The notes: generated by a model from the letters alone, not told the origin. 28,122 nt of DNA from Eremomyces bilateralis CBS 781.70 (GCA_010015585.1 ML975169.1); one strand, 5' to 3'; counted from the stretch's first letter, positions 1 to 27,692 are shown. Numbers and translations: made by a program.

Positions 1-1014
1 CCAAGGACAAGGACATACATGTAGATTTTGTTGACAATAGGTTGGCGGATGTTGTCCATACTGTGACTGTTGTTTAGCACAGGGAATATGTAACAGGGCT
101 ACCGGAAAGGTAGAAGGAAAAGATAATCACGAAGAGGACAAACATTCTGTTCTCAAGTGGACCGATCCCTGTCCCGTCAAGCCACGCTCGAGTCGAAACG
201 TTTTTATAGCGGCATTTCCCATCTTACTCTCTGGTTTGGAATATTGTATTGGCCTTGATTTTCAGCCAACAATCAGTCTCAATTTCATGGATTTGTTCTT
301 ACTTCAAGACGGGTATATATATGGAGAGGTGTTGAGGGGTTCAGATAATGCGATCCGGCCAATTCATGATGTGTACCGGAATGCCTCTCTTTCCATACTC
401 AAGAGATGCTAGTCTAACTAACTTTTCGAATCTCTTATCTGGCTGTTGGTCGTCTGATCTTCCGGTCTTCTACCAACAAAAAACTCTTCGCTCGGATTGA
501 GCTCTGGTGAAGAGATGGGAAGGTAACTAAGCTTGAGTCCTGATTCGAAGCACGTCACCGTAACAAGTGAGGCTAAAGGAAGGTTGTCCATGATAAAGAA
601 CTGGCTTCGGAGTTGCACTGTCGAAGGTTCAGAACCACGCTACAATCGAAGAGTTCGTTAGTCGCTTCGGGGAGGCACGCATGTAGTACGCGTACGTAGA
701 GAAGGAGTCGTTTATATAGCACGATGTTAGAGCTGAGCTCTTTTAGAAATGGTTCTACCACTAATTGAATCGACCAGGCTATCCCGTAAGTAGCGTCGGA
801 TGTTTCCTGGTCTCGAATGCGTCTATCTATACCAGTAAACGGAGCTGGTAGTTATTTGTAATCGTGCTATAAGGCGCTAATCTAAAACAGTAAGCCTCTT
901 TCCCTTTCAAGGTCAAGAAGCCGATAAAGCTGAAAGGCTCCAAAAGGAAATGAACGGTTAGTGTCAGCCTCTATTCAGATGTCCATCCGAACTTTGATTG
1001 TTAACGCGCCACAG

Positions 1015-3001
1015 CCTGTCTCGGCTCCCTGTGCTTTGGCGACATCCACGCTCGGCGGCAAGACATAGCCGCCGCCCATCCAAATACATGTGACTGGCTT
1101 TTTACTACGACTGAATACAAGAAATGGTGGGACCGTACCGACCTACAAAGTCATAACGGAGTTCTTTGGATCAAGGGCAAGCCGGGAGCGGGAAAGTCGA
1201 CGTTGATGAAGCACACTTTAGGCCATCTCGAAAAGACTTCCGTCAACAACTTGGTCATAGCGTATTTCTTCAACGCTCGAGGCGGTATTTTCGAGAAGAC
1301 TCCTCTCGGCATGCTTCGATCGATTGTCCACCAGCTCGTTGATAAAGAAGCTATGCTATACGAGAATTTCGCCTCTATCTTTCGCGAGAGGCAGAGAATA
1401 CACACAGGAGATTGGGAGTGGCGACAGTCAGAACTGAAGGAGTTTATACTCTCAGAAATCAGGCAGTGGAAGTCGAAGCCACTCGTGCTTCTCGTTGACG
1501 CGCTAGACGAGTGCAACGAGGTAGATGTGTGGGACGTAGTTGGTTTTCTGGAGTTGCTAAGCATCTATGCCGTTAGATTTGGTGCTCCTCTAAGGATTTG
1601 TCTCTCGAGTCGTCACTATCCTAGTGTTAGAGTGAAGAGGAGTCTTGAGTTGACGGTGGAGAAGAGTGAAAATCACCAAGAAGATATAGCGAGATATATC
1701 AAGGAAAGACTGACGAAAGAGGACGACGACGATATAGAGGATTTGGAAGATATCGAGGATGAGATCGGGAGAAGAGCAAACGGGATTTTCATGTGGGTTG
1801 CCATTGTAGTCTCTCTACTTAACAAGGCCTACTATGAGGGCCGCATGGAAGTCATGCGCAAGACATTAGAGGAAGTACCGAACGATCTCGAGGAGGTGTT
1901 CGACAACCTCTTGAGAAAAGATGGTGGAAACAAGGCCGAGACAATACTCATGCTTCAATGGGTGCTGCTCTGTCAGCGGCTGCTGAAGCCTGAAGAGCTC
2001 TTCATCGCTGTGATGACCGGAATACCTCCGAAGAGGATAGACAGATGGAACCGATCCAAGTTCAGCAGAGACATTATCCAGCGACGCATCACTTCATCAT
2101 CAAAGGGCCTGATCGAAGTTCGAAAATTGCGGGGGGCATCGGTGCAGTTCATTCATCTGTCGGTCAACGACTCTCTTCTTCGAAACCAGATGCTGCAGAA
2201 ACTAGACCAGACGCTGGGACCGGAATCTATCAGTGCCAGCCATGGCCGATTGTGGGCGTGCTGCTGGTCATATATTGAGCGAGTGGACACTACAGGTACA
2301 GGCGAGAAGAAAAGGTGAGAGCTGAACGACAAAAATCCTTTCCTGGAGTATGCGGCGAGCCATATTCTGTACCATGTCGACATGGCCCTATCAGAAGGTA
2401 CCATCGTAGAGACCATTGTACAGTGGGTTCAAAAGCATAAGGAGTGGTTTGAGTGGTTGAAAAATTTCTTAATGCGACTCGCGGTGAGAACGAGCCTTCA
2501 TATTCGGGCGATAATATAGATGCGGGAATGGTCTACATGTTATCACTTGGTGGCCATCAACATCTAGTCCTATATATCCTGGCCGATGACGCTAACGTCA
2601 ATGCGCAAGGCGGGTACTACGGCACCGCGCTCCAAGCAGCAATGTATGGAAGCAAGAAAGAGTTGGTCGAGCTGCTGCTGACCCAGGGCGCCGACGTCAA
2701 CGCGAAAGGCGGGAACTACGGCACTCAACTCCAAGCAGCAGCGTATGGAGGCAAGAAGGAGTTGGTCGAGCTGCTGCTTGGCCAGGGCGCCGGCGTCAAC
2801 GCGCAAGGGGGTCACTACGGTGCCGCGCTCCAAGCAGCAGCAGCAGCGTATAGAGTCAATAAGGAGTTGGTCGAGCTTCTGCTGGCCCAGGGCGCCGACA
2901 TCAACGCGCAAGGCGGGTATCACGGCACCGCGCTCCAAGAAGCAACGTATAGAATCAATACGAAGGGGGTCGAGCTGCTGCTAGCCCAGGGCGCTAAATG
3001 A
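1015..3001 (+). pseudogene. NACHT-ankyrin NLR-like gene, disrupted (premature stop plus frameshift); N-terminus not resolved
   Basis: The frame from the acceptor AG at 1013-1014 reads CLGSLCFGDIHARRQDIAAAHPNTCDWLF...VLWIKGKPGAGKSTLMK (Walker A), LLVDALDEC (Walker B), ICLSSRHYP and GIFMWV. An in-frame TGA at 2316-2318 is followed by the conserved NPFLEYAASHILYH. A 1-nt loss in the A-run at 2460-2464 shifts into the ankyrin frame (ORF 2453-3001). Probable intron 957-1014 (GTTAGT...GTTAAC...CAG), with a possible upstream exon at ~891-956. Confidence 0.88.
2588..2998 (+). repeat. Four ankyrin repeat units (~99-105 nt) with high internal nucleotide similarity
   Basis: Units of the form AxVNAxGGxYGTALQAAxYxxxKELVELLLxQG. 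Unit 3 has two extra GCA (Ala) codons. Confidence 0.9.
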
Positions 3002-3327
3002 AAATGCTGGCTGATGTTCGTTAATGGTGTATAGAGATTTTTCTTGATATTACGTTCTAGATCTCTATTTCATAGATGGTTAAAGGAGAAAAGGTGTATT
3101 TAAGGTGAAAAAGGTAGGTCTAGGTTAGTATATCTCGCACCATCTCGAAGCTTCGCATGATTTGGAATATGGGATTTGAGTGATCACTGTAATGGTCCCA
3201 CAGCAACCTAATCTCACAGCATTCCGATCTCACAAACTGTATTGGCTTTAGTTACCAAGTCCTTGGAAAGAATAGATACCCTCTAACTCACTGAACATGG
3301 CTCAAAGCATCCAATACTCTGAGAAAC

Positions 3328-3567
3328 GTGTGTGCAACATGTTTCGTCACTTACCACTGCGGCCACCATGGGCATACATACTCAATTCCTTGCCACCGCG
3401 CTGAAGCCCTAAGGAAGGAAACCATTCGGTGATGCGCTAATTGAGGCGACTGAGCTACATGGGAAAGCCGAGCGAAGATGGACTGCCCATCTTGTAGTAG
3501 GCCGCCTGTCACATACGATATCAGAAAGGAGCCTGAAGACGTTATGACTGAAGCACAGTGGGAATGA
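3328..3567 (+). pseudogene. Small Cys/His-motif protein, array copy 1 (GTG start, three internal TGA)
   Basis: Manual translation: VCATCFVTYHCGHHGHTYSIPCHRAEALRKETIR*CAN*GD*ATWESRAKMDCPSCSRPPVTYDIRKEPEDVMTEAQWE*. It has the same C2/C11/G12/H13/C22 spacing, CPxC and AxWE as the three intact copies. Stops at 3430, 3442 and 3451. Confidence 0.82.
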
Positions 3568-3877
3568 TGCCGACAATACAGGGTAAAGGTACGTTGCCAG
3601 AGCATAGGATCTAAGGCAAGCATCGGCCCCTATGGTGTTTGCAGGGTAGCGGTATGGTCCGCTTGGATTAACAACAATTGAGTGTCCAGAACGAATTTCT
3701 CGCTGGCGTGAATATGATAGTACCACATGACAACAATATTCCCCAGAACTTTAACCTTTCAAGGCATGTACGTGATACCACTCGAAAGTGACGCTATAAA
3801 TCATTCTTTCCATAACACGTGGCAAGGGAGACCGATAAGCGTATTCTAAATGACTGTTAGGAGCCCAAATCGACATG

Positions 3878-3884
3878 TATAAGA
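3878..3884 (+). promoter_or_regulatory. Putative TATA box of array copy 2
   Basis: TATAAGA 103 nt upstream of the ATG at 3981, followed by an A/C-rich leader; same geometry as copy 3. Confidence 0.45.
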
Positions 3885-3980
3885 GCGCACCCAGGGGCCG
3901 CTTCCAAATCAACTCTAGTATCAAAAACTTAAACCATTATCCCAGACCCATTACCACTTCCAAACCCCAGCCATCACAGC

Positions 3981-4238
3981 ATGTGTTCATACTCCCGAGT
4001 CATATATCGGTGCGGACATGGAGGTCGCGGGTACAGATACCTATGCGATCAAGCACTAGTCCGCGAGCCCTTCGTATGGTGCGCAGCAAGCGATTGTTTT
4101 TCATGGGACACACCACCGGTCCCCCAGCCTTGCCCGATGTGCGGTGGCCCTCCTGTACATTACAGCGACGGAACGGGACCGGGATACCTAGATCATCAGG
4201 CGGACTGGGAATGGCTGATAAATAATGTCTCCGACTAG
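3981..4238 (+). CDS. Small Cys/His-motif (putative Zn-binding) protein, array copy 2, 85 aa
   Basis: MC-x8-CGH-x8-C-x11-C-x16-CPMC...ADWE, aligning with copies 1, 3 and 4; upstream TATA-like box. Confidence 0.8.
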   Translation: MCSYSRVIYRCGHGGRGYRYLCDQALVREPFVWCAASDCFSWDTPPVPQPCPMCGGPPVHYSDGTGPGYLDHQADWEWLINNVSD

Positions 4239-5179
4239 TCTGGGAATATAACTAATATCAGAACGCGTCAACACTCTACATGATTGCCGTTTATTGTGTG
4301 AGTGAAGTAATAGATACATAGGAAGGTCATTGTTGACCCGTGCAACTTGAATAGAAATGCAATGAATGCTTTAGCATATCGTTTTGAAGATTATGGCAAA
4401 ATGAAACGAAAAGTTAAAATTAGTGTCTCGACTCGTTAGTTGCAACATTTTAAAACACTCAAATACTGTCTTTGAGTCGAAGTTTCGTTCTCTAGTGCCA
4501 TCGCTCTAGCCCAAGCTGCGAGAACATCCTCAGCACCATCAGGGCAGCTGATATGGTATATATGCGACTGTACTAAGCAGCTTTTGCGATTCTAGACATA
4601 TCTACACAGTAGTGGTGCTGCATGGACATTGCTCTGGCCAGAGAATGTCCTAAGCGGGTGACCGAAACGTGCTTCAGCATCCAGCGGAGCCGTTTGTTTT
4701 GTGATCTAGCGGAATAGGAGATTGAAGAAACTGATGAAAATATATAAGAGATGCATTCAAAGTACGGAAAGTGCAAGTACGGTCACCACGACGTTTTTAG
4801 GAAAGTCAATATCGTACTAAACTCGTCAGATGCTCCAAGTTTAAATCGCACCACACCTTTTGAACCCTGCTCAGATATACTAGTTCGAGCTGGGTGCTCT
4901 GATATTGAGCGTGAGCATCATTTGCCGGGAATTAATCCTCAGGCTGTGTACAGGCAGTAGTCCGGCACGATGAAATGACCCATGTTGGCAGACATCTTAT
5001 AAGTCCGGTAGACTGACCTGGGCGACCCAGCTCAATCAGAACAGAAAGTTCAATATTGGGGATAAAATCGAAGACGGAGATTGGATGAATGCGCCTAGAA
5101 TATCGAAAACTGGAAGGTTGAGCGAAACGACCCGTTGGTTGACCAAAACCGTTGAACCGCTCGATGCCAGACCAAGTCC

Positions 5180-5186
5180 TATAAAA
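5180..5186 (+). promoter_or_regulatory. Putative TATA box of array copy 3
   Basis: TATAAAA 111 nt upstream of the ATG at 5291. Confidence 0.5.
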
Positions 5187-5290
5187 ACCCCTCTGGAATG
5201 GCAGCACTCTCCGATGGGATCCAACTAACTTAAACTCGTGCTCAGCAAAAGTCAAAACCCTTACCTCTCCTCGAGCTCCAAAAAGACATA

Positions 5291-5578
5291 ATGTGCCACT
5301 ACTATCGACCTCATTACAAGTGCGGATGCAGAGGCCGAGGCCGGGTCTTCCATTGCATAACATCTTTTCAACGACTGTTCCGAACCTATTGTACGGACAT
5401 GGCAGTCTGGAGTTGGCATGAATATCCTCGAAAGCTGTACTGTCCCACACATGGAGGAGAAGTTTGTGACGATGAAATGGATGGGAACAAGGCTGGGGAT
5501 GTGCTTGTCCACGCAGACTGGGAACCGCCCTCGAACGATCACGATCCTCCCACAGGTGGTTATATGCAGTTAAATTAA
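5291..5578 (+). CDS. Small Cys/His-motif (putative Zn-binding) protein, array copy 3, 95 aa
   Basis: MC-x8-CGC-x8-C-x11-C-x16-CPTH...ADWE; Cys spacing identical to copy 2. Confidence 0.8.
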   Translation: MCHYYRPHYKCGCRGRGRVFHCITSFQRLFRTYCTDMAVWSWHEYPRKLYCPTHGGEVCDDEMDGNKAGDVLVHADWEPPSNDHDPPTGGYMQLN

Positions 5579-6019
5579 AACAGTGCGCCAATAACAGAAA
5601 CATAAGAAGACGTGGGAAACTTCCGGTATTGAAAACGAGGAAGAAGCGCTTGTTGGATTTGAATGCGCAGAACTGGGACAGCAAAAACGACATCAGCAGT
5701 TGTCTAGCAACATAGCATTAGAAAATCACCAAACTTAACAAACACGGCTTAAGAAGAAGGCGATAAACAAACGCAGTACACACCATTCTTTTCGTCTCTT
5801 CACACTCTAGCTCTGATAAAGTCTTTGTCGTTAATCTTAAGTGAACAAAAACTGCTTTCGCATAGGAATGAGTCGAGTCTCCAATACACTGAAAATCCTC
5901 AGCCTAAAACTCGTTTGATCAGTCCGGTAACCATGTGAGGTACATAAACCATGCCGACATCGCTAACATTGCAACAGCAGTCTCCCCACTCTGGCTTATC
6001 GAACGCCAACTCACTCGGA

Positions 6020-6640
6020 ATGTGCCTGTTCTGGCAGAGTCGTTTGGGCTGCGGTTGTCGAGGCCGGTTGCTAGGTTTCTTCTGCGACAATGTTCTGGAA
6101 AGGGACATCGAGGATCGGACGTTCTGTGATGCTCAAACCCTTACAGTCATCCAGAAAGAAGAGGCCTGCCCCTTCCACGACGGGCCAGGGGAGCTGCCAG
6201 GAGAGGTGGCCGAAGCTCGCGGAGAGATTATCGATTACGCTGACTGGGAGGGATCAGACAGCTCATGGATTGCGGAGGATGAGACTGCATATAGGACATC
6301 TGAGAGGATGGATCCCCCGGCAAGAGCAGAGGTGGCGACGCAACCTTCTTCCAGAGACAATGCTGCCAACAGAGCAGCCAACAGAGCAGCCAACAGAGCA
6401 GCCAACAGAGCAGCCAACAGAGCAGCCAACAGAGCAGCCAACGGAACAATCAACGGAGCAGCCAACAGAACAGCCAACAGAACAAATCATGGAGAATATC
6501 CCGGGGAGGAAGACTCCAACGACGAAGTAGGACAACATGCGGAAGCAAGGTCTGCACAAAGGGAACGAGAGATACGAAGAAGAGACTCAGGGAGCAGACT
6601 GAACGAGAGATACGAAGCAGAGGCTCAAGAAGCACATTGA
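6020..6640 (+). CDS. Cys/His-motif protein with acidic and repeat-rich tail, array copy 4, 206 aa (ORF extends upstream to 5951)
   Basis: The ATG at 6020 gives MCLFWQSRLGCGCRGR-x5-C-x13-C-x13-CPFH...ADWE. Paralogue alignment places the start here rather than at 5951. Confidence 0.78.
   Translation: MCLFWQSRLGCGCRGRLLGFFCDNVLERDIEDRTFCDAQTLTVIQKEEACPFHDGPGELPGEVAEARGEIIDYADWEGSDSSWIAEDETAYRTSERMDPPARAEVATQPSSRDNAANRAANRAANRAANRAANRAANRAANGTINGAANRTANRTNHGEYPGEEDSNDEVGQHAEARSAQREREIRRRDSGSRLNERYEAEAQEAH
6362..6481 (+). repeat. 12-bp coding minisatellite (GCAGCCAACAGA), 10 units, encoding AANR-type tetrapeptides
   Basis: AANR x6, AANG, TING, AANR, TANR, read directly from the sequence. Confidence 0.95.
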
Positions 6641-8338
6641 ACAATGTCTAAAGAAGGAATGCAGGGGACAAAGGAATCTAGAACTACACACATTGCTGTG
6701 AGAGATGCTAGTTTGTTCAAACCCGTCATTCGATCGCGTGAAGTAGGAAAGCGGTCAATGGTGTTAGGACCCCGCTTCAGAAAGGGAAATAGGAAGCAGA
6801 ACTTGGGCTTGCTACTGGATCAAAGTTGAGGGATGCTCCTCTGGGGTAACTGGAAGCCAGCGGTCAGCTATAGAAATCGTGAAATTGAATGATTCGTTTC
6901 CAATCCTAAGTCATGTTCTGTGCTGTGGGGAAATCAATCCAGTTACAGGTGTGTTCTCTCCTCCGAAGGAGATACACTGTTCTTGAGAGCATCCCTGAGA
7001 GCCTCATCTGAGAGAGAATGTGAAGGACGTCTTGATCTAATTGCCTTAGGGGAATAATGTCATTGTACTCCAGATTTGCCTATTTGCAGGGGTTAATGTA
7101 CGATATAAGCAAGGCGTAGACTGTAGCTGACCAGTGCCATTTTCGATATGCCGCGGTCAATGGAGCTTTGCCCATAGTTCTTTCAACAACCGGATTTCCC
7201 GCCGTCTTTTTTGGAGGACTGAGTGAGGTCTTTGATGCGAAATGGTGGAGAACAGGCCGGCCTTCTCATCTTTCTGGGATCACTAGTAGACGTTATCCTC
7301 AATTCGGCCACATTCTCAACTCACGATAGATGGAAATCATGTCTAATCTGATGTTATTATGCCCTAGGGTGTGCTGATATTACATTTGAGATAGACAAGT
7401 TGAAGCAAGAGTCGACGTTGAAAATCCCATGATGAATTGATGATACTACAGCCTCGCTTTGCTATGGAGGTATCAACGAGATAAGGCGATAAGGCGAATT
7501 TCAGGCACCAAGCCTCGATATCAACATGAGCCAACCAGATAAATCAACCTGATGGGACAAATCTGAGAAGTGACATCAGATCACAGCAGCAAGACAGTGC
7601 CAGATTAGATGTAGTTGGTTATTGGATAGCATTATCCGGTGCAAGAATGCCTGTACATCGGTATATTTCCTTTGGATAGTTACATAGGACAAATAAATCC
7701 TACAATCATTGTTCATTTCTTGGAACTCGGATATAAGGCTTGTTGTTAGTCACAGCACAAGGTGTACAACCGCCTCGAGACGACCTCGAAAGCTCCGCAA
7801 TTCAATGAGAATTGTCAAATTTGTTTCTAGTCTCAAGGATCATGGTGGAGTATGTACTCAACTCCATGGAGATGGCTTGGCATGAGTCATTTCTTCCCTT
7901 GGACAATCTAATATTGAGGAGCGGCAAGGACGAGATTCTCAACCTGCGGATTGGCCGCGGGAACGTAGGACAATGAACAGACAAGGTGAGGTGAAGGTCC
8001 TGTATTGAGCGAGTAATGAGTCTATCTTTTCCATCCAGTAGCGTCGCTAACAATCAAGTGTCATGAACACCCTCTCCTGTCTATAATCGGCACTAAGCTC
8101 GAGCATCTAAAACAGAGGCTGTACATAAATGGAAGAACCCTGTATCATATCCCATCGTTCGTAAATCAGAACGCCCTCCCCGTAGTGTAGGGTATCGCTG
8201 CAAACCCATGTCCCGTACTTTTTTGCCGTCTAAAATGCATGGTAGACCCAAACGCCCGCTTCAACGCTGAACAGAGAAAGACAAGAGTAGAGAGCGTCCG
8301 GATAGACGCGGGGAGCTCTCCCAACGGCCCGCATGAAT

Positions 8339-8920
8339 TTACGCGGCCATGGTCTGTTGTTGCGCCGCCTTCTCCCGCTCTTCCTGCCACACCTTGCGGC
8401 ACATCTCGAGCACCATCTCAAAGCCCTGGCGGCCATTCGCTGCGTTCTGCCGGAACTGCTCCACGGAGACGCTCTCGATGGAGTTTTTGATCTTCTGCCA
8501 CCCGCCGCAAAGGGCGGTGATCTCGGCGTACTGCTTGAACTGGGTGTGTTCGGCGCCGGTGTTCGTCCGGACCGGTTCGTAGCTGCAGGTTTCCCGAACG
8601 TTCAGGAAGTCAGACCAGGTGATGTTCATGGCGCACATGGTGAGCTTCCGGGTCTTCGGATCGATGTAGGAGGTCTCGTAGACGTGGGAGGTGCTCTGGC
8701 CCTTTAAGAAGGGTAGAATCCACTTCGGCGGCGATTGTTGGCAGGTGATCAATCGCTCAGTGCGGAGGATGCCCGTCGCCGGATCGACGGAGCGCTGGAG
8801 GGTGTCGACGGCGATGACGTGGGGGGTCATTTTGTTCCATGGCGAGTATTTCAACCAGTTCGCGCATGAGACTTCCTCCCATGAGTAGTCGAACTGGGTC
8901 TCGGATGAGAAAACCTTCAT
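8339..8920 (-). CDS. UPS2: PRELI/MSF1 family mitochondrial intermembrane-space lipid transfer protein (Ups2-like)
   Basis: 193 aa, single exon; MKVFS..FDYSWEEVS.ANW.KY..WN..TPHVIAVDTL and GILRTERLITC, with the C-terminal FRQNAANGRQGFEMVL. Confidence 0.92.
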   Translation of the reverse strand: MKVFSSETQFDYSWEEVSCANWLKYSPWNKMTPHVIAVDTLQRSVDPATGILRTERLITCQQSPPKWILPFLKGQSTSHVYETSYIDPKTRKLTMCAMNITWSDFLNVRETCSYEPVRTNTGAEHTQFKQYAEITALCGGWQKIKNSIESVSVEQFRQNAANGRQGFEMVLEMCRKVWQEEREKAAQQQTMAA

Positions 8921-9710: not shown

Positions 9711-11150
9711 TTAGAACCGAGACTCCACCTTCTGCTCGGTATCCTGCCTCGCCCACTCGCTGTCCGCCTTCTTCGACACAACCGACTTGACCTGCGCCTT
9801 GGTGAATCCCTTGGCCTGAGTAGCCGGGTTATATCCGACCAACGTGCGCTTCGCAACCTCCGCATCCGAGACGGTCGGGGCGGCCGCGCCATCGCCACGC
9901 TTGTACACCGTGCAGACGACGGCACCGCCAAGACCCAAGTTGTGTTGAAGGGCGACCTTGGTATCCGGGACGGCGCGGTTGTTGGCCCAGCCACGCATGT
10001 GCCAGACGAGCTCGGCGCACTGCGCCAGGCCGGTGGCGCCAAGCGGGTGACCCTTGCTGATGAGCCCACCAGACGGGTTGACGACGACCTTGAGGCCGGG
10101 GCCGTAGGTGATGCCACCGCTGCGGACGAGCTCGTGAGCCTTTCCGGGGGCACTGAGGCCGAGCGCGTCGATGGTGACCATCTCGTTGGCGGAGAAGCAG
10201 TCGTGCAGCTCGCAGACCTTGACGTCGGCGGGGGTGGCGCCGGCCTCGGCCAGGGCGCGGGCGGCAGCGGTCTTGGACATGCCGTAGCCGATGAGGTCGA
10301 TGCTGCTGCGGGAGAACAGGTCGGGGGAGTCGGTGGCGAGGCATTGGCCGGCGATGAGGACGGCTTGGGACTTGAGGTGGGGGCGGGCGTCGAGGAAGGA
10401 TTGGGAGACGAGGACGGCGGCGGCACTGCCGTCGGAGGTGGGGCAGCATTGGAGCTTGGTGAGGGGGGCGTGGATCATGGTGGAGTTGAGGACCTGGTCG
10501 AGGGTGTACTCGTCCTGGAACTGAGAGTAGGGGTTCTTGCCGCTGTGCAGATGGTTGATGCGGCCAATCTCGGCGAAGTCCTCGGCTGAGGCGCCGTACC
10601 TAAAGGATGGTCAGTCTCGACGGTACAAAAGGTGAGACAGCTGGGAAACGTACTTCTCCATGTATTCCCGACCAGCGTTACCGAACAGCTGAGCAGCGCC
10701 CGGAGCGTTCGTCACGCCACGGGTCTCCTTCATGATGAGGTTGGTCGTGGCGGTCGGGTTCGAGCGGTCCTGGAAGAAAGTCTGCAAGCTCCCGGGGAAC
10801 ATCTTCTCGAAGCCCACGACGAGCACGCAGTCGGCGGCGCCATGGCTGATCATGTTGCGACCCATAAACAGGCCGGTGGAGCCGGTGGAGCAGTTGTTGT
10901 TGACGTTGTAGATGGGGATCTGGGTCATGCCGAACTGGTAGAAGACGCGCTGACCGCAGGTGCTGTCGCCGTAGCAGTAGCAGGCGACGCCCTGGTCGAC
11001 TTCGTCGTAGTTGATTTGGGCGTCGAGCATCGCCTTGACACCGGCTTCGAAGCCGAGCTCATTGTAGTCGACCTTGCCGCGGGGCTTGATGAACTTGGTC
11101 ATGCCCACGCCCAGCACGTAGCATGGCTCGGTTGCTTTCCTGTTCACCAT
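9711..11150 (-). CDS. SCP2/SCPx-type thiolase (non-specific lipid-transfer protein-like)
   Basis: Exons 11150-10654 and 10599-9711; intron 10600-10653 (GTACGT...CTGAC...TAG). Motifs NVNNNCSTGST, ELHDCFSANE, NPSGGLISKGHPLGATG and QHNLGLGG; C-terminus SRF. Confidence 0.95.
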
Positions 11151-16650: not shown

Positions 16651-19596
16651 TCAGAGCCTCACTTTGGCCCCGATCCCTTTCCCCTTATACCAAATCCACT
16701 CCTCCCACCGCCCCACCCGGACCCCCACCTCCGCCTCGGCATGCAACTTCAGCGATCCCCCCAACGCCTTCCGGACCGCATCGTACCCCACGCTTCCGGC
16801 ATCCCAGTCCACGGGAAGTCGCGGAGTTTCGGAGATACCAGGCGGAACGGCAAAGGGGAACTCGTACTGAAGGTGGCCGACGGGGTCGTGTTTGTAGAAA
16901 GCAGTGGCATTGATCTTGGTGATGAAAAGGGTTGTGGAGGTGAGGGGGGAGACGAGGAGGAAGGTGGCGGTGGAGGACCAGAGGTGCATCTGCGGGAAGG
17001 TGGTCAGCCAGCTGTAGACTCCATGATCGAGGTGTGATGGTGAGGAAAAACACGGTTTCAACCCTGGCGGGCAGCTACGCGCGGTTGACACTAACCGTAA
17101 ATGATAAAGCAGGCTACAATAACGTTTCATCCATAAATCATAAGCTTGGTGCAAAGTCTAAGAGAGTTCGTAGTACCGTTGCTCCTTGGATAAAATGTGG
17201 CTTGCCGTCCGAGCCATCCCCGTTTCCGGCGCCGGGGGCGGAACCGAAACTAGGGGTTGGAAATTCGATTTCGAGGGAAGAGAGGGCTTCGCCAATTTCA
17301 GGGTGGGAAGGGATGCTGTTTCGGTGGGTTCGAAGGGTGATGGTGGTGTTGTAACCTGAAAGTTTCAGCATCTAAAGGTCTCAGGGGGCTGGATAGACTT
17401 ACCAGAGAGGTACTGCGAAATCAATTCACGACCTATTGCTGCTCCGGTATTGCCACTCTCTGTAATCGGATCATATGTTGCCCGAACTACAATATTGGTG
17501 TTGTTCCCAGGATTGATTTCGATCGACTCGGTTGTGGCATGGCCGAGGACCGTGCCGTTCACGACAACTTTGATGTCAAAGTACGGAACAGTCGCAGAGT
17601 AGTTGGTAGGGTTGGTGAAATTGGCTAGGGCTAGAAACTGGATCGAATCCGGCGTCGTTTCAACAATGGTTACATTTCCGACTTGAGGTGCTAGTGATCC
17701 CCAGCCTGAGCCGAGTCCGATGGCTATAGTTTCGTTAGAATTTCCTCAAGCGGAGACGAAATAAGCGTACGTTTGATTGGGAATACACCAGACGCAGGAA
17801 GGTCACGGAGAGTGAGGGCTGTCAGGGTCGTCGCCATCTTCACGTCCACAGTAGCCTCGATCGTCAAGAACGCTGTTTGTTTCTTAAAGAGCAATGTCGC
17901 GACCAGCTGAGTGAACAAATCTTGATCGGTGATCTTCAAGGGGGCTCCGTCGACATGAGCCTGGACTAGGAGACCACCAAGCTCGTCCGGGTCCGTCAAC
18001 CTCCTCGAACTGGCTTCTTGCCATTTTTGCAAATTCAGCTCCCCAAGTTTCTTCTCCTTCCAGTGCACATCGGCTAGAGCTCGTACATGGCTGACGTTCA
18101 CGGTGAAATCCAGCTGATCAGGAAGATTGACGATCGCTTCGATGTCAGCAGAGATCTCGGGGTCGTTGTCGGTCTCTGATTCTGGGTCGGGAAGCTTGAA
18201 ATGGACGTCGGTGAGGGAAAAATTGCGAATTAGGTGGTCGATTGCGGGGCCTTTAAAAGGAACCGGAATGGTTATTGAGGACAATAGGTTGGTGATCCAC
18301 TTGGGCGTCTCCACATCGGGGGAATCGGAGCCACGGATATATACGGTCGTCTCTGCTCCATGGATGTAGTCCTTGACAATCATATCAAGAGGGGACTTTT
18401 GTGAGCCAGGGCACACATCCATCAGCGACTCAGGTATTCGTCTGACGAACCCTGTCCCATTAGCGACGATATCCGCGTTCGGGGAGATATGAAGGGGTTC
18501 GCAAAACGCATCCGCAACCATGATTTGAGGGTCATTGGGGGAGCAGCCATCCACAAGGATTCCGAATCCAAGTGGTGGAATCGTCAGATCTAAAGGATAT
18601 GGATTAGGCACTTTCATTGACACATCCGCCTGCAGTCCCTGGTTGCCGTCCGGAAGGTCGGCGTCGTGTACTACAAGATGGGTGATGTTATATTTTGGAA
18701 TTGCCGGAATATCCGTTGCTTCGCAGCGGCGGATGCTCTCATGTTAGCCGTATTGTTCTGAATCCGACTATGGTTTTACACAACTAACCTGAAACGGTCC
18801 TGGAGTAGATGATGGTTCGATTTCCGAGATCGATAATCCCAGAACGAACAGGAATATGTGCTATTCCCCGTATATTGACCGTCGTTAGTTGGCCTCTGAA
18901 ATATGCTCCTGCGGCCGACCGAATAGGTTCCACCGCTGCTGGAATGAGATTCGCCACTTCTTTGATCTTATTAACCCGTTTATCACGGACATCTGCTTTC
19001 ACGGGCGGAAGCACCGCAATCCCAACCACCGCATCGCCGAAATCCGGTAGAAAGACGTTGACTCTCGACTCTCCACTTTGGATTTCGCGAGCAATCCACG
19101 TCCCTATTCGTCCTAGGTTCCGGATGGCGAAACGCTCCACGCGGGAAGAATCGAACTGGACCATGAATTCCACGTTGGCGTGGACTCCATCCGGCGTGAC
19201 CGAGTCGAAAGTGAGGGTCGTGGGCTCGAAAACGACGGCTTGCGACGCGTATTCTTCTATGATGACGGGGACCACGAAGCGGAATACCAGGATCGCGGCG
19301 GCGACGAGACAGAGGAGGAGAAGAGCAACCGCGCTTGGCCATCGCTTTCCTGGGTGCGTTGTTTCGTCCCGCGTGCTAGAGGAGAGTAGTGAGTGGGTTT
19401 CTGCCAAGCCACTGGCAGCGACTTCGCCATCTTCGTCGTCTTCATGGTTGCCAACCTGGACATCTTCGTTACGGGATAGAAGGGGCGTTCGCTCCGTTGC
19501 GTTCTTGTCGCCTTGCGAATCTCTCGAACGTAACGACCTGCTTGAGGGAGATCTAGAGGTGGAAGCTCCGGTGGTATCCGGCGCTGGGTCTGCCAT
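16651..19596 (-). CDS. Tag1/DUF3712-like single-pass membrane protein (LEA-2-like beta domains)
   Basis: Five exons with introns 18719-18788, 17724-17770, 17356-17402 and 16990-17176, all GT-AG and frame-restoring. N-terminal ERTPLL dileucine-type sorting motif, one TM helix, NFTNPTNYSATVPY, ELISQYLSGYNTTITL and C-terminal YKGKGIGAKVRL. Confidence 0.85.
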
Positions 19597-25640: not shown

Positions 25641-27692
25641 ATGGCTGACGAACCCCGTAAACGATCGCGATTCGACCAGACCGAGGCCGAACCAAAGCGC
25701 TCCCGTTTTGATCGCCGCTCGCGTTCACCTCCCTCCCGAACCTCCACCCGGGATGTCCGAAGCCGTAGTCCCCTTCAGTCAGGAGCTCGAGATATTGGTA
25801 GCGCTAGTCCCGCTGCAAAGAAAGACCCTGGTGCCGCCGCCGCAGCTGCAGCTGCTCGAATTAACGCACAGATTCAGGCGCGCAAGGCTACAGAGATACA
25901 TAACACAGGCGACGTATGTCCTGATTCGTTGATCAGATATGCTAACGGCATACCCCCTTTCTTGTCTATCAGTCGCTAACTTGACCTCAACAGTCTGCGA
26001 CCCCACCCTCCGAGCAATCCGCCGTAGTAAAAGCGCCAGTGAACAAGGCTAGCGCGAGCGTCCCCGGAGATATCTACACGCAAGATGGCGATTACATCAA
26101 GGATATCGAGATCAACGATCTCCGTAATAAATACACGCTGACCAAGGGAGCTACTCAGAAGATGGTAAATACTTTTGCTGTTATAACCAGCTGATCGTCC
26201 AGGACGGTTTCTGACTCGCCAAAAACCCGAAGCACACTTCCAACTGCTGTCGCGACGTTTTGACTGTCGCTCAGCAAGTATTTTCTTTTCTGTATTTCAC
26301 GTGTGTTCGGAGAAATGCTCACCAACCATCTGTTCTAGCTATATTTCCCACCCGTTTGGCTGATGCTGACCTCACCTGTGTGACATCTAGATCAAAGAAG
26401 AAACTGGCGCCGGTACGCACATTCACTGTCTAACCGTTTAGTGAGCTATGCTTATGCAAGTGTGAAGATGTCACAACCCGCGGGGAATACTATCCCGACA
26501 AGAGCTTGGCTACTGCTGCTGTAAGTTTGTCAGCCTGATATATTTGAGTACTAAGCTAACCACCGCTCTAGAGCCCCCCACTCTACCTACACATCACGAG
26601 CCTTAGCAAAGAAGGGCTAGAGAAAGCCATTGGGAAGATCGATGAGTTAATGAAGCAGGAGTTGCCCAACTTGGTGGACGAGCGACGTCTCCGCCGCCGC
26701 GAGCCCGACCCGGTTGAGCGTGACGAGCTTGGAAGGGTATCCATTATCTGTTTAATATTTGTCGACGAGCTTGCTAATTTGTATAGCGTAAATGGCCGGA
26801 AGAGCGTATCCCAATTGATCTTGAACCCATCCCTGGATTCAATCTCCGAGCCCAGGTCGTCGGACATGGTGGAGCTTACGTCAAGCACATTCAAGGCGAG
26901 ACGCGGTGCCGTGTGCAAATCAAGGGCCGAGGATCGGGGTTCATCGAGCACAACACCGGCCGAGAAAGTGACGAACCGATGTACTTGCATGTTGCGTAAG
27001 TATCAAGCCCCCACCAAACCATAACTGCGGTCCTGTTAACATCCTATAGAGGGCCTGATGCAAACGAAGTTCAGCGCGCGAAAGAGCTCTGTGAAGATCT
27101 TCTCGACAACGTCAAAAAGCAGTACGAATCTTTCAAGGAGCGTGGCGGTTCCCAATCTCACGGCAACTATAACGGCCAGCGTAGCTACGGCAGCTATGGC
27201 AGTCAGGGTGGACAAGGCGGACAAGGCGGACAAGGCGGCCATGGTGGACACGGCGGCCACAGAGATGCCCAGTCGCCTCCCCAAGCTGCCGCCGCTATGT
27301 CACCTCCTGGAGCTGCAGCTAGCACCTCGAGTGCCGACTACGCCGCGCAATATGCCCAGTACTACGGCGGGCAAGACCCTTATGCTCAGTACGGCGGCTA
27401 TCAGAACTACATGACCATGTGGTATCAGTACTACGGCCAGGGCCAACCGGCACCGGATGGCACACAGCCAGCTGTCGGGGCAGGGTCTGTCGCACCTGGA
27501 ACCGGTGCTCCTCCCCCGCCGGTTGAGCAACCGCCTCCTCCGCCTCCTGGAGCACCGGGAATGTCAGCACAGCCTCCACCGCCGAGTGGGAACCCGCCGG
27601 GTGGATATAGTGCGGTTAGTGGAACGATACACATTTGCTGAGGTGAAATACTGACAAGCCGTTACAAGGTTCCACCGCCGCCCGGAATGTAG
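25641..27692 (+). CDS. KH-domain RNA-binding protein (KHDC4/Blom7-like)
   Basis: Eight exons: 25641-25913, 25994-26164, 26391-26412, 26468-26520, 26572-26736, 26787-26995, 27050-27614 and 27669-27692. Motifs KDIEINDLRNKYTLTKGATQ, TGADVTTRG, PPLYLHI and VVGHGGAYVKHIQ...VQIKGRGSG; RS-rich N-terminus and Pro-rich tail. Confidence 0.9.

Follow-up and report, generated by a model that had tools for sequence, protein, structure and literature searches.

The window analysed here, a stretch of 28,122 nucleotides (nt) from Eremomyces bilateralis CBS 781.70 (GCA_010015585.1 ML975169.1; positions are counted from its first letter), carries a tandem array of four paralogous units that share a constrained protein scaffold in a single reading frame. 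One of the units is dead, and the family is rare and absent from annotation. The reading that we prefer, and to which we give about an even chance of being right, is that this is an old array of three live genes and one pseudogene, and that the genes encode small intracellular fungal proteins, zinc-scaffolded adaptors or regulators that may be called microproteins. The gene content of the window is fungal, with NACHT/NPHP3_N plus ankyrin, PRELI, ALG11, Tag1, OTCase and AHAS small-subunit genes. Translation bore out the four positions on the + strand (3328, 3981, 5291 and 6020) that had been given for the units in the original prediction, which was made from the DNA alone, and the array can be laid out as follows.

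3328..3567, + strand: copy 1 (c1), a pseudogene; from translation and a full pattern match.
3981..4238, + strand: copy 2 (c2), an intact open reading frame (ORF) of 85 residues, MC...CGH...CPMC...ADWE; from translation, alignment and pattern.
5291..5578, + strand: copy 3 (c3), an intact ORF of 95 residues, MC...CGC...CPTH...ADWE; from translation, alignment and pattern.
6020..6640, + strand: copy 4 (c4), the whole ORF of 206 residues from its Met-Cys (MC) start; from translation.
6020..6250, + strand: conserved part of c4, the Cys/His module and acidic spacer up to ADWE; from translation and alignment, the MC start being shared by the external relative P0001.
6251..6640, + strand: low-complexity tail of c4; from translation, repeats and flat codon usage.
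5951..6019, + strand: in-frame extension upstream of c4 with an alternative ATG at 5951, probably its 5′ leader, since all other members start at MC.

The pattern shared by the units is far above chance. A search of all six frames of the window with the expression C-x8-C-G-[HC]-x8-C-x11-13-C-x13-16-C-P-x-[CH]-x15-30-A[DEQ]WE returned four matches, which are c1 to c4 themselves, and none in 100 block shuffles. The component patterns are each 25- to 100-fold above expectation: Cx8CG[HC] was observed 4 times against 0.17 expected per shuffled window, A[DEQ]WE 5 times against 0.19 (with AEWE at 27581 as the fifth), and CPx[CH]-x18-26-WE 5 times against 0.05 (the fifth, at 27149 on the − strand, crosses stops). 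In c1 to c4, twelve columns are invariant (M1, C2, C11, G12, G15, C22, C34, C51, P52, A74, W76 and E77), and among c2, c3, c4 and P0001 there are 16, with R16, R28, G56 and G68 added; at position 16, c1 has H and the other four sequences have R. Local alignments of the intact copies score above all 500 shuffles (z-scores of 12.1 for c2-c3, 7.2 for c2-c4 and 14.9 for c3-c4), and profiles built from the micro-proteins matched nothing else among the 692 six-frame ORFs of the window, where every other ORF had an expectation value (E) above 1 with either profile. The pattern, alignment and profile tests thereby agree with the original prediction that this is a genuine paralogous family. Its description of the residues between the anchors as almost entirely different has to be given up, as pairwise identity between the units is 28 to 37% and several positions other than the ligands are fixed.

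In all three pairs of intact units, it is the +1 frame that gives the best score (z 13.7, 7.8 and 15.8, reached by none of 200 shuffles), while the other frames are mostly below z 4.1, the exception being an in-register antisense echo between c2 and c3 (z 8.1). A blastn comparison at word size 7 found no nucleotide similarity between the units. In protein-guided codon alignments, the proportion of synonymous differences (pS) is 0.76 to 0.87, which is saturation, and the nonsynonymous proportion (pN) is 0.42 to 0.57; because the synonymous distance (dS) is saturated, its ratio to the nonsynonymous distance (dN/dS) is not computable. Nor is there a signature of repeat-induced point mutation (RIP), the indices of which are negative across the region, ruling it out as the cause of the divergence. 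Protein similarity in the +1 frame, absence of nucleotide similarity, saturated synonymous sites and absence of RIP together point firmly to old duplicates whose protein scaffold has been held by purifying selection over a long time. Codon usage also supports the frame in the c4 module.

The dead copy that the original prediction had counted is c1. Where the other copies begin with ATG it has GTG, and three TGA codons fall in frame within a run of nine codons (3430-3453); the frame is otherwise kept, with C2, C11-G-H13, C22, CPSC and AQWE all retained in it. A profile built without c1 nevertheless matches both of its halves among the ORFs of the window (E 0.0028 and 0.052), and the local alignment of c1 with c2 has a z-score of 17.6, a score reached by none of 500 shuffles; the alignments of c1 with c3 or c4 are not significant alone (z 1.5 and 1.7). 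A very short intron, from GT at 3429 to AG at 3454, was considered as a rescue and rejected. Since this stretch of 26 nt is too short and its removal would delete a conserved Cys, c1 is a pseudogene; introns in the window, as seen from spliced joints in RNA-derived contigs, measure 47 to 106 nt. Antisense to c1 lies an ORF of 90 residues (3351-3623, − strand) that NCBI/UniRef lists among the products of the same 396,544-nt contig. This ORF has no Pfam match, is alone in its cluster and is probably a spurious gene call.

The proteins are built from a module of about 53 to 56 residues, from Met1-Cys2 to CPx[C/H], followed by a spacer and a short motif. Seven Cys/His positions are fixed in the module (C2, C11, H/C13, C22, C34-36, C50-51 and C/H53-54), with either His or Cys at two of them, 13 and 53/54. 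The CPx[C/H] knuckle is present in all five sequences, as CPSC in c1, CPMC in c2 and CPxH in c3, c4 and P0001, while the other candidate knuckle is a C-x-[H/C] turn (C-G-[H/C]) and not CxxC. A stretch of 23 or 24 residues leads from the CPx[C/H] knuckle to the end of A[DEQ]WE in 5/5 sequences, even though its residues differ; the acidic linker of about 20 residues ending in A[DQ]WE that had been predicted is there, and its constant length had gone unremarked. The spacer has a net charge of −3 to −7 in all five, and the first 30 residues have a net charge of +1 to +6, again in all five. The module as a whole is positive in four of the five (+1 to +7, c3 being the most basic at +7) and is −2 in c4. 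The A[DEQ]WE motif follows a pair of hydrophobic residues (YL, VL, II, LL or VM). Cys makes up about 7 to 8% of the residues (7/85 in c2 and 7/95 in c3), and aromatic residues are frequent. On inspection, the N-termini are polar or basic, with the domain beginning at residue 2, and no hydrophobic stretch resembling a signal peptide is visible, as had been predicted.

Beyond the motif, c2 and c3 end within 8 to 17 residues, while c4 and P0001 continue into long low-complexity tails. In c4, the tail, whose codon usage shows no frame preference, contains a 12-nt repeat in 9.8 copies (6365-6481, + strand) that encodes ANRA in the c4 frame. A 38-nt repeat in 2.1 copies (6563-6642, + strand) also lies there.

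With respect to function, the N-terminal module of about 54 residues would be a small, beta-rich, metal-binding domain, with zinc as the most likely metal. Its seven ligands could form one tetrahedral site and a partial one, or else a shared two-metal cluster. The acidic spacer, presumably disordered and with its length fixed at 23 to 24 residues, would present A-[D/E/Q]-W-E, which, placed after two hydrophobic residues, may serve as a short docking motif for a conserved partner; alternatively, the A[D/E/Q]WE tail might fold back on the basic module of the protein itself. Metal binding is suggested by the Cys/His interchange, the CPxC-type knuckle, the odd fixed number of Cys and the lack of a visible signal peptide, and from the primary structure, zinc binding by the module is plausible. 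We also infer an intracellular location. An AlphaFold2 model of c4 has five short beta strands within residues 2-48 and disorder elsewhere, with low confidence, which gives a weak indication that the module may be beta-rich.

Among known systems, the zinc ribbon or rubredoxin knuckle comes close in several ways: the proteins are small, c2 has a C-P-x-C-G knuckle (and c1 has CPSC), an architecture of beta hairpins is predicted, and Cys and His interchange. Such interchange is typical of structural zinc sites. The differences are that there is here one knuckle of CxxC type, replaced by CPxH in c3, c4 and P0001, with C-G-[H/C] as the other turn, and that the fixed ligand positions number seven rather than four or eight. 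A ribbon has two CxxC/CxxH knuckles, one at the tip of each of its two beta hairpins, which supply one Zn with four ligands; 5/5 of these sequences have one CPx[C/H] knuckle, and the model is all-beta with a mean predicted local distance difference test (pLDDT) score of only 45. The best match in Pfam, which is below threshold, is that of the CPMCGG knuckle of c2 to the zinc ribbon Lar_restr_allev (PF14354), at E 0.071 and 13.8 bits against a gathering threshold of 28.6, and no structural match accompanies it; the score falls far short of what membership would take.

The tail resembles W-acidic motifs, such as those that bind kinesin light chain, in having a Trp followed by an acidic residue within an acidic disordered stretch near the end of the protein. 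W-acidic motifs belong to animal systems and have Leu or Met two residues before the Trp, whereas the residue at that place here is an invariant Ala, and a literature search found no fungal counterpart. Fungal metallothioneins are likewise small, intracellular and Cys-containing, and the present proteins may share metal binding with them, but their Cys content of about 7 to 8%, many aromatic and charged residues, defined spacing and long acidic tail differ. Metallothioneins are very rich in Cys, arranged in CxC/CxxC clusters, with few aromatics if any, and a thiolate-cluster peptide of this kind was rejected on the 7 Cys among the 85 residues of c2 and the frequent aromatics. A twin Cx9C (CHCH) protein of the mitochondrial intermembrane space, in which two C-x9-C pairs sit on an antiparallel hairpin of helices, was also discarded, given spacings of C-x8-C, C-x8-C, C-x11-13-C and C-x13-16-C and a model with strands instead of helices.

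Very few relatives of the family could be found. A profile search against 1.84 billion representative proteins gave three matches at E ≤ 0.001, and only one of them, P0001, is genuine. This protein of 171 residues comes from an independent data set, in which it lies on a single assembled contig of 1,428 nt; it has the same Met-Cys start and is matched at E 3e-13 by a profile from which it was excluded. Its identity with c4 is 36/53 in the module (68%), 10/24 in the spacer and 3/10 beyond. The other two matches, P0002 and P0003, are long repeat proteins in which the acidic part alone was matched (8 and 4 stretches), and they were set aside as spurious. A word-index search for homologues found none with c2 alone and only P0001 with alignment A2 (743 candidates).

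No Pfam family was above threshold for c2, c3 or c4, and for c3 and both forms of c4 there were no families even at E ≤ 10. No curated zinc-finger family, including Zn2Cys6, was matched in Pfam (E ≤ 10 for c2 to c4 and E ≤ 1 for P0001), and P0001 showed no Pfam match to the Zn_Beta_Ribbon clan. A profile search of PDB sequences gave one match at chance level, to angiogenin-2 (E 0.18). With Pfam, PDB sequences and Foldseek all empty, the earlier statement that no characterised family could be named for these proteins holds. A literature search, the coverage of which left out most subscription journals, found no description of the family or of the ADWE motif. On our reading, this is a lineage-restricted and so far unannotated family.

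Exact look-ups in NCBI/UniRef showed that the PRELI-like neighbour and the 90-residue ORF antisense to c1 are present, both from one contig of 396,544 nt, whereas c2, c3 and c4 (in either form) have no entry, and nor do seven other ORFs of the region. As two products of the same contig are there and c2 to c4 are not, the genome has been annotated with the live micro-genes left uncalled, just as the original prediction had expected of gene callers. In the ESM Atlas, the 30 look-alike clusters counted for c2 are all unnamed; the three listed are of Ascomycota hypothetical proteins of 79 to 92 residues, with a score of 0.92 and 202-209 of 256 features shared. They resemble c2 in length, phylum and feature score, but the comparison is by features alone, and neither profile hidden Markov models (HMMs) nor word searches connect them to the family. 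A search of the Atlas limited to named clusters gave no usable match for c3. The look-alikes may represent a presumed wider 'MC...CGH' class of micro-proteins in Ascomycota, in line with the MC...CGH-type starts of unannotated fungal proteins mentioned in the original prediction; for the present, they are a lead only.

The array is preceded on the same strand by a gene of the NOD-like receptor (NLR) type.

1005..3001, + strand: NLR-type gene with a NACHT (NPHP3_N) region and ankyrin repeats; from Pfam, repeats and translation.

About 330 nt separate this gene from the start of the array. It contains an in-frame TGA at 2316-2318, with NLR-like sequence continuing after it in the same frame, and a change of frame near 2450-2520, followed by four ankyrin repeats (99-nt period, 80% matches). 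Its open frame begins directly at the NACHT N-terminal region and includes no N-terminal effector domain. Judged by its sequence, the gene looks broken. The profile search of the six-frame ORFs found no micro-protein motif in the NLR region. According to passages of PMC9815663, genes next to NLRs can share C-terminal amyloid motifs; zinc is unmentioned there, and the two matches to cysteine both belong to a bacterial species name. In those passages, an amyloid signalling pair of the HET-S/NWD2 type is recognised by a short motif common to the NLR N-terminus and the C-terminus of its neighbour, and no such motif was found here. The array adjoins conserved housekeeping genes and is itself not conserved in databases.

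TATA-like boxes had been noticed before two of the copies, and both were found.

3878..3883, + strand: TATA-like box TATAAG, 103 nt upstream of c2; from reading the sequence.
5180..5186, + strand: TATA-like box TATAAAA, 111 nt upstream of c3; from reading the sequence.

A promoter motif common to the units was considered and dropped. No RNA run is on record for 3200-6700, and the transcript evidence comes from the one run found, X1, labelled 'RNA?', with 0.44 of sampled words; since its contigs carry 7 spliced joints, all in neighbouring genes, the run contains RNA-derived sequence. One spliced contig joins 6413-7078 to 7131-8224, and its intron (7079-7130), which reads CT..AC on the + strand, places the transcript on the − strand. 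It holds no ORF above 60 codons, runs antisense over the c4 tail and ends inside the 12-nt repeat, and it is either a long 3′ untranslated region of the PRELI-like gene (8342-8920, − strand) or a non-coding RNA.

Two further observations concern the rest of the window. An RNA joint at 18733-18788 skips 56 nt that read AT..AC on the + strand, which corresponds to GT..AT on the − strand, the strand of the Tag1-like gene; the position of the junction is unambiguous, and the 3′ splice site is non-canonical. The segment 9630-11160 is GC-rich (0.65 over 10001-11000); both of its strands contain long open frames, without a Pfam match, and it lies inside a strongly covered, spliced − strand contig (8777-13473).

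Several points weigh against reading the array as three live genes for zinc-scaffolded adaptors or regulators. Codon usage is nearly flat for c2 and c3. The depth of X1 is present in all 30 bins and is 0.5 to 5.9 in the five bins over 3336-6003, but this measure is blind to unit and strand, and carry-over of DNA is possible. The regions upstream of the units are without a common motif, one 7-mer being common to three of them against 0.7 expected. There is one relative among 1.84 billion representatives, and two metagenome scans (with alignments A2 and A3) gave 391 pattern matches each, of which 0 were confirmed; with a single relative known, measuring selection across species is out of reach. 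As c1 is dead and the neighbouring NLR gene apparently broken, the whole locus could be decaying. In addition, two classical Zn(Cys/His)4 sites would call for eight ligand positions and not the seven present, and the idea that A[DEQ]WE serves for docking is purely conjectural. Finally, the AlphaFold2 models are of low confidence (mean pLDDT 35.1 for c2 and 45.3 for c4, from four-row alignments), and Foldseek, run with a model of such low confidence, gave 0 matches in the PDB at E ≤ 0.001, its weaker rows carrying no meaning.

Among the other explanations, one is that the proteins are mini zinc fingers for nucleic acids, in which an Arg/Gly-rich start (CG[HC]xGR...) would bind DNA or RNA, and the acidic end with its hydrophobic residues and Trp would activate or else mask the basic face. 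The charge dipole common to all five sequences, the tail that is disordered in the model and the invariance of G15, R16 and R28 in c2, c3, c4 and P0001 (c1 having H at 16) suit this idea, and a tail of Trp and acidic residues may resemble acidic activation motifs. It has to contend with the net negative module of c4, with the lack of any DNA- or RNA-binding Pfam family at E ≤ 10 and with the lack of a nuclear localisation signal by eye, and we consider it unlikely, if the least so of the alternatives. It is also quite unlikely, in our view, that the units are decaying relics of a once-functional family, all of them by now neutral ORFs with little or no translation, the intact ones simply not having picked up stops so far. 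The dead c1, the in-frame stop and frame change of the NLR gene, the weak codon-usage signal of c2 and c3 and the absence of c2 to c4 from the annotation would all agree with decay, and because other long ORFs are open in wrong frames of the region (for example, 3854-4225 on the + strand and 4932-5717 on the − strand), openness alone is weak evidence of a gene. Yet with synonymous sites saturated, 12 to 16 columns are still invariant, and the spacer length is fixed; c2, c3 and c4 all begin with the conserved Met-Cys and meet no stop before the end of A[DEQ]WE; and P0001 keeps 68% of the c4 module. Neutral drift over so long a time would have erased the pattern, and in c1 that loss is already under way.

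The original prediction had favoured a recognition or conflict family, and the units might then serve the NACHT-ankyrin protein next to them, or other NLRs, as baits, guardees or ligands. Position speaks for this, with the array some 330 nt after the NLR gene on the same strand, as do the tandem multiplication with one dead copy and a locus that sits beside housekeeping genes without being conserved itself. The link to a recognition gene is one of position only, and the gene in question looks like a pseudogene; the profiles hit nothing in the NLR region, so that no shared motif of the amyloid-signalling kind is there, and the passages of PMC9815663 describe shared C-terminal amyloid motifs instead, without zinc. 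Moreover, the copies are old, as the synonymous proportions above indicate, and the 36/53 residues of the c4 module kept by P0001 look like ordinary purifying selection, not fast diversification. We therefore find the recognition or conflict reading improbable. More doubtful still is a broader version in which these would be a class of fungal 'bait' micro-proteins not recognised before, whose zinc-held variable scaffold shows a fixed A[D/E]WE tail to NLRs of the ankyrin or tetratricopeptide-repeat (TPR) type, with the array and the NACHT-ankyrin gene as what is left of a receptor-ligand or guard-guardee cassette and with the family as perhaps the tip of a large 'MC...CGH' class in Ascomycota. 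That the real genes lie antisense, as the 90-residue ORF and one of 253 residues (4932-5693), leaving the + strand pattern as a by-product, is very improbable. The former is in NCBI/UniRef from the same contig, an open frame of 261 codons (4932-5717, − strand) lies opposite c3 and the region upstream of it, and the antisense frame of c2-c3 reaches z 8.1; but the +1 frame scores highest in all three pairs, P0001 matches the + frame, neither ORF has a Pfam match, none of 314 candidate homologues of the 253-residue one reached E ≤ 0.01, and the 90-residue one is alone in its cluster. The + strand is A-rich (AT skew 0.18), which would lower the frequency of stops on the − strand, and the A-poor − strand is probably what keeps the frame at 4932-5717 open. 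Least credible of all is the idea that the units encode small cysteine-rich effectors or toxins that are secreted and held by disulfides. Fungal effectors of this sort carry a signal peptide, and their Cys, even in number, pair in disulfides. Proteins that are small, Cys-containing and in tandem in a variable region would look the part, but these have polar or basic N-termini with the domain starting at residue 2, an acidic and disordered tail, and an odd fixed number of Cys, and at two of the seven positions Cys and His are exchanged, which is incompatible with disulfides; this candidate was rejected on inspection.

In the reading that we prefer, that of old, selected microproteins with a putative zinc scaffold, the family brings a small Cys/His scaffold that is new and of a generally familiar kind, with an unusual acidic spacer of fixed length and an invariant Trp motif, and for now it is better regarded as an orphan family than as a surprise for specialists. 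The array also illustrates how standard fungal annotation can miss conserved, selected micro-proteins while calling a spurious-looking ORF opposite a dead member of the same family. If the wider 'MC...CGH' class proves true, many more such genes could await in Ascomycota.

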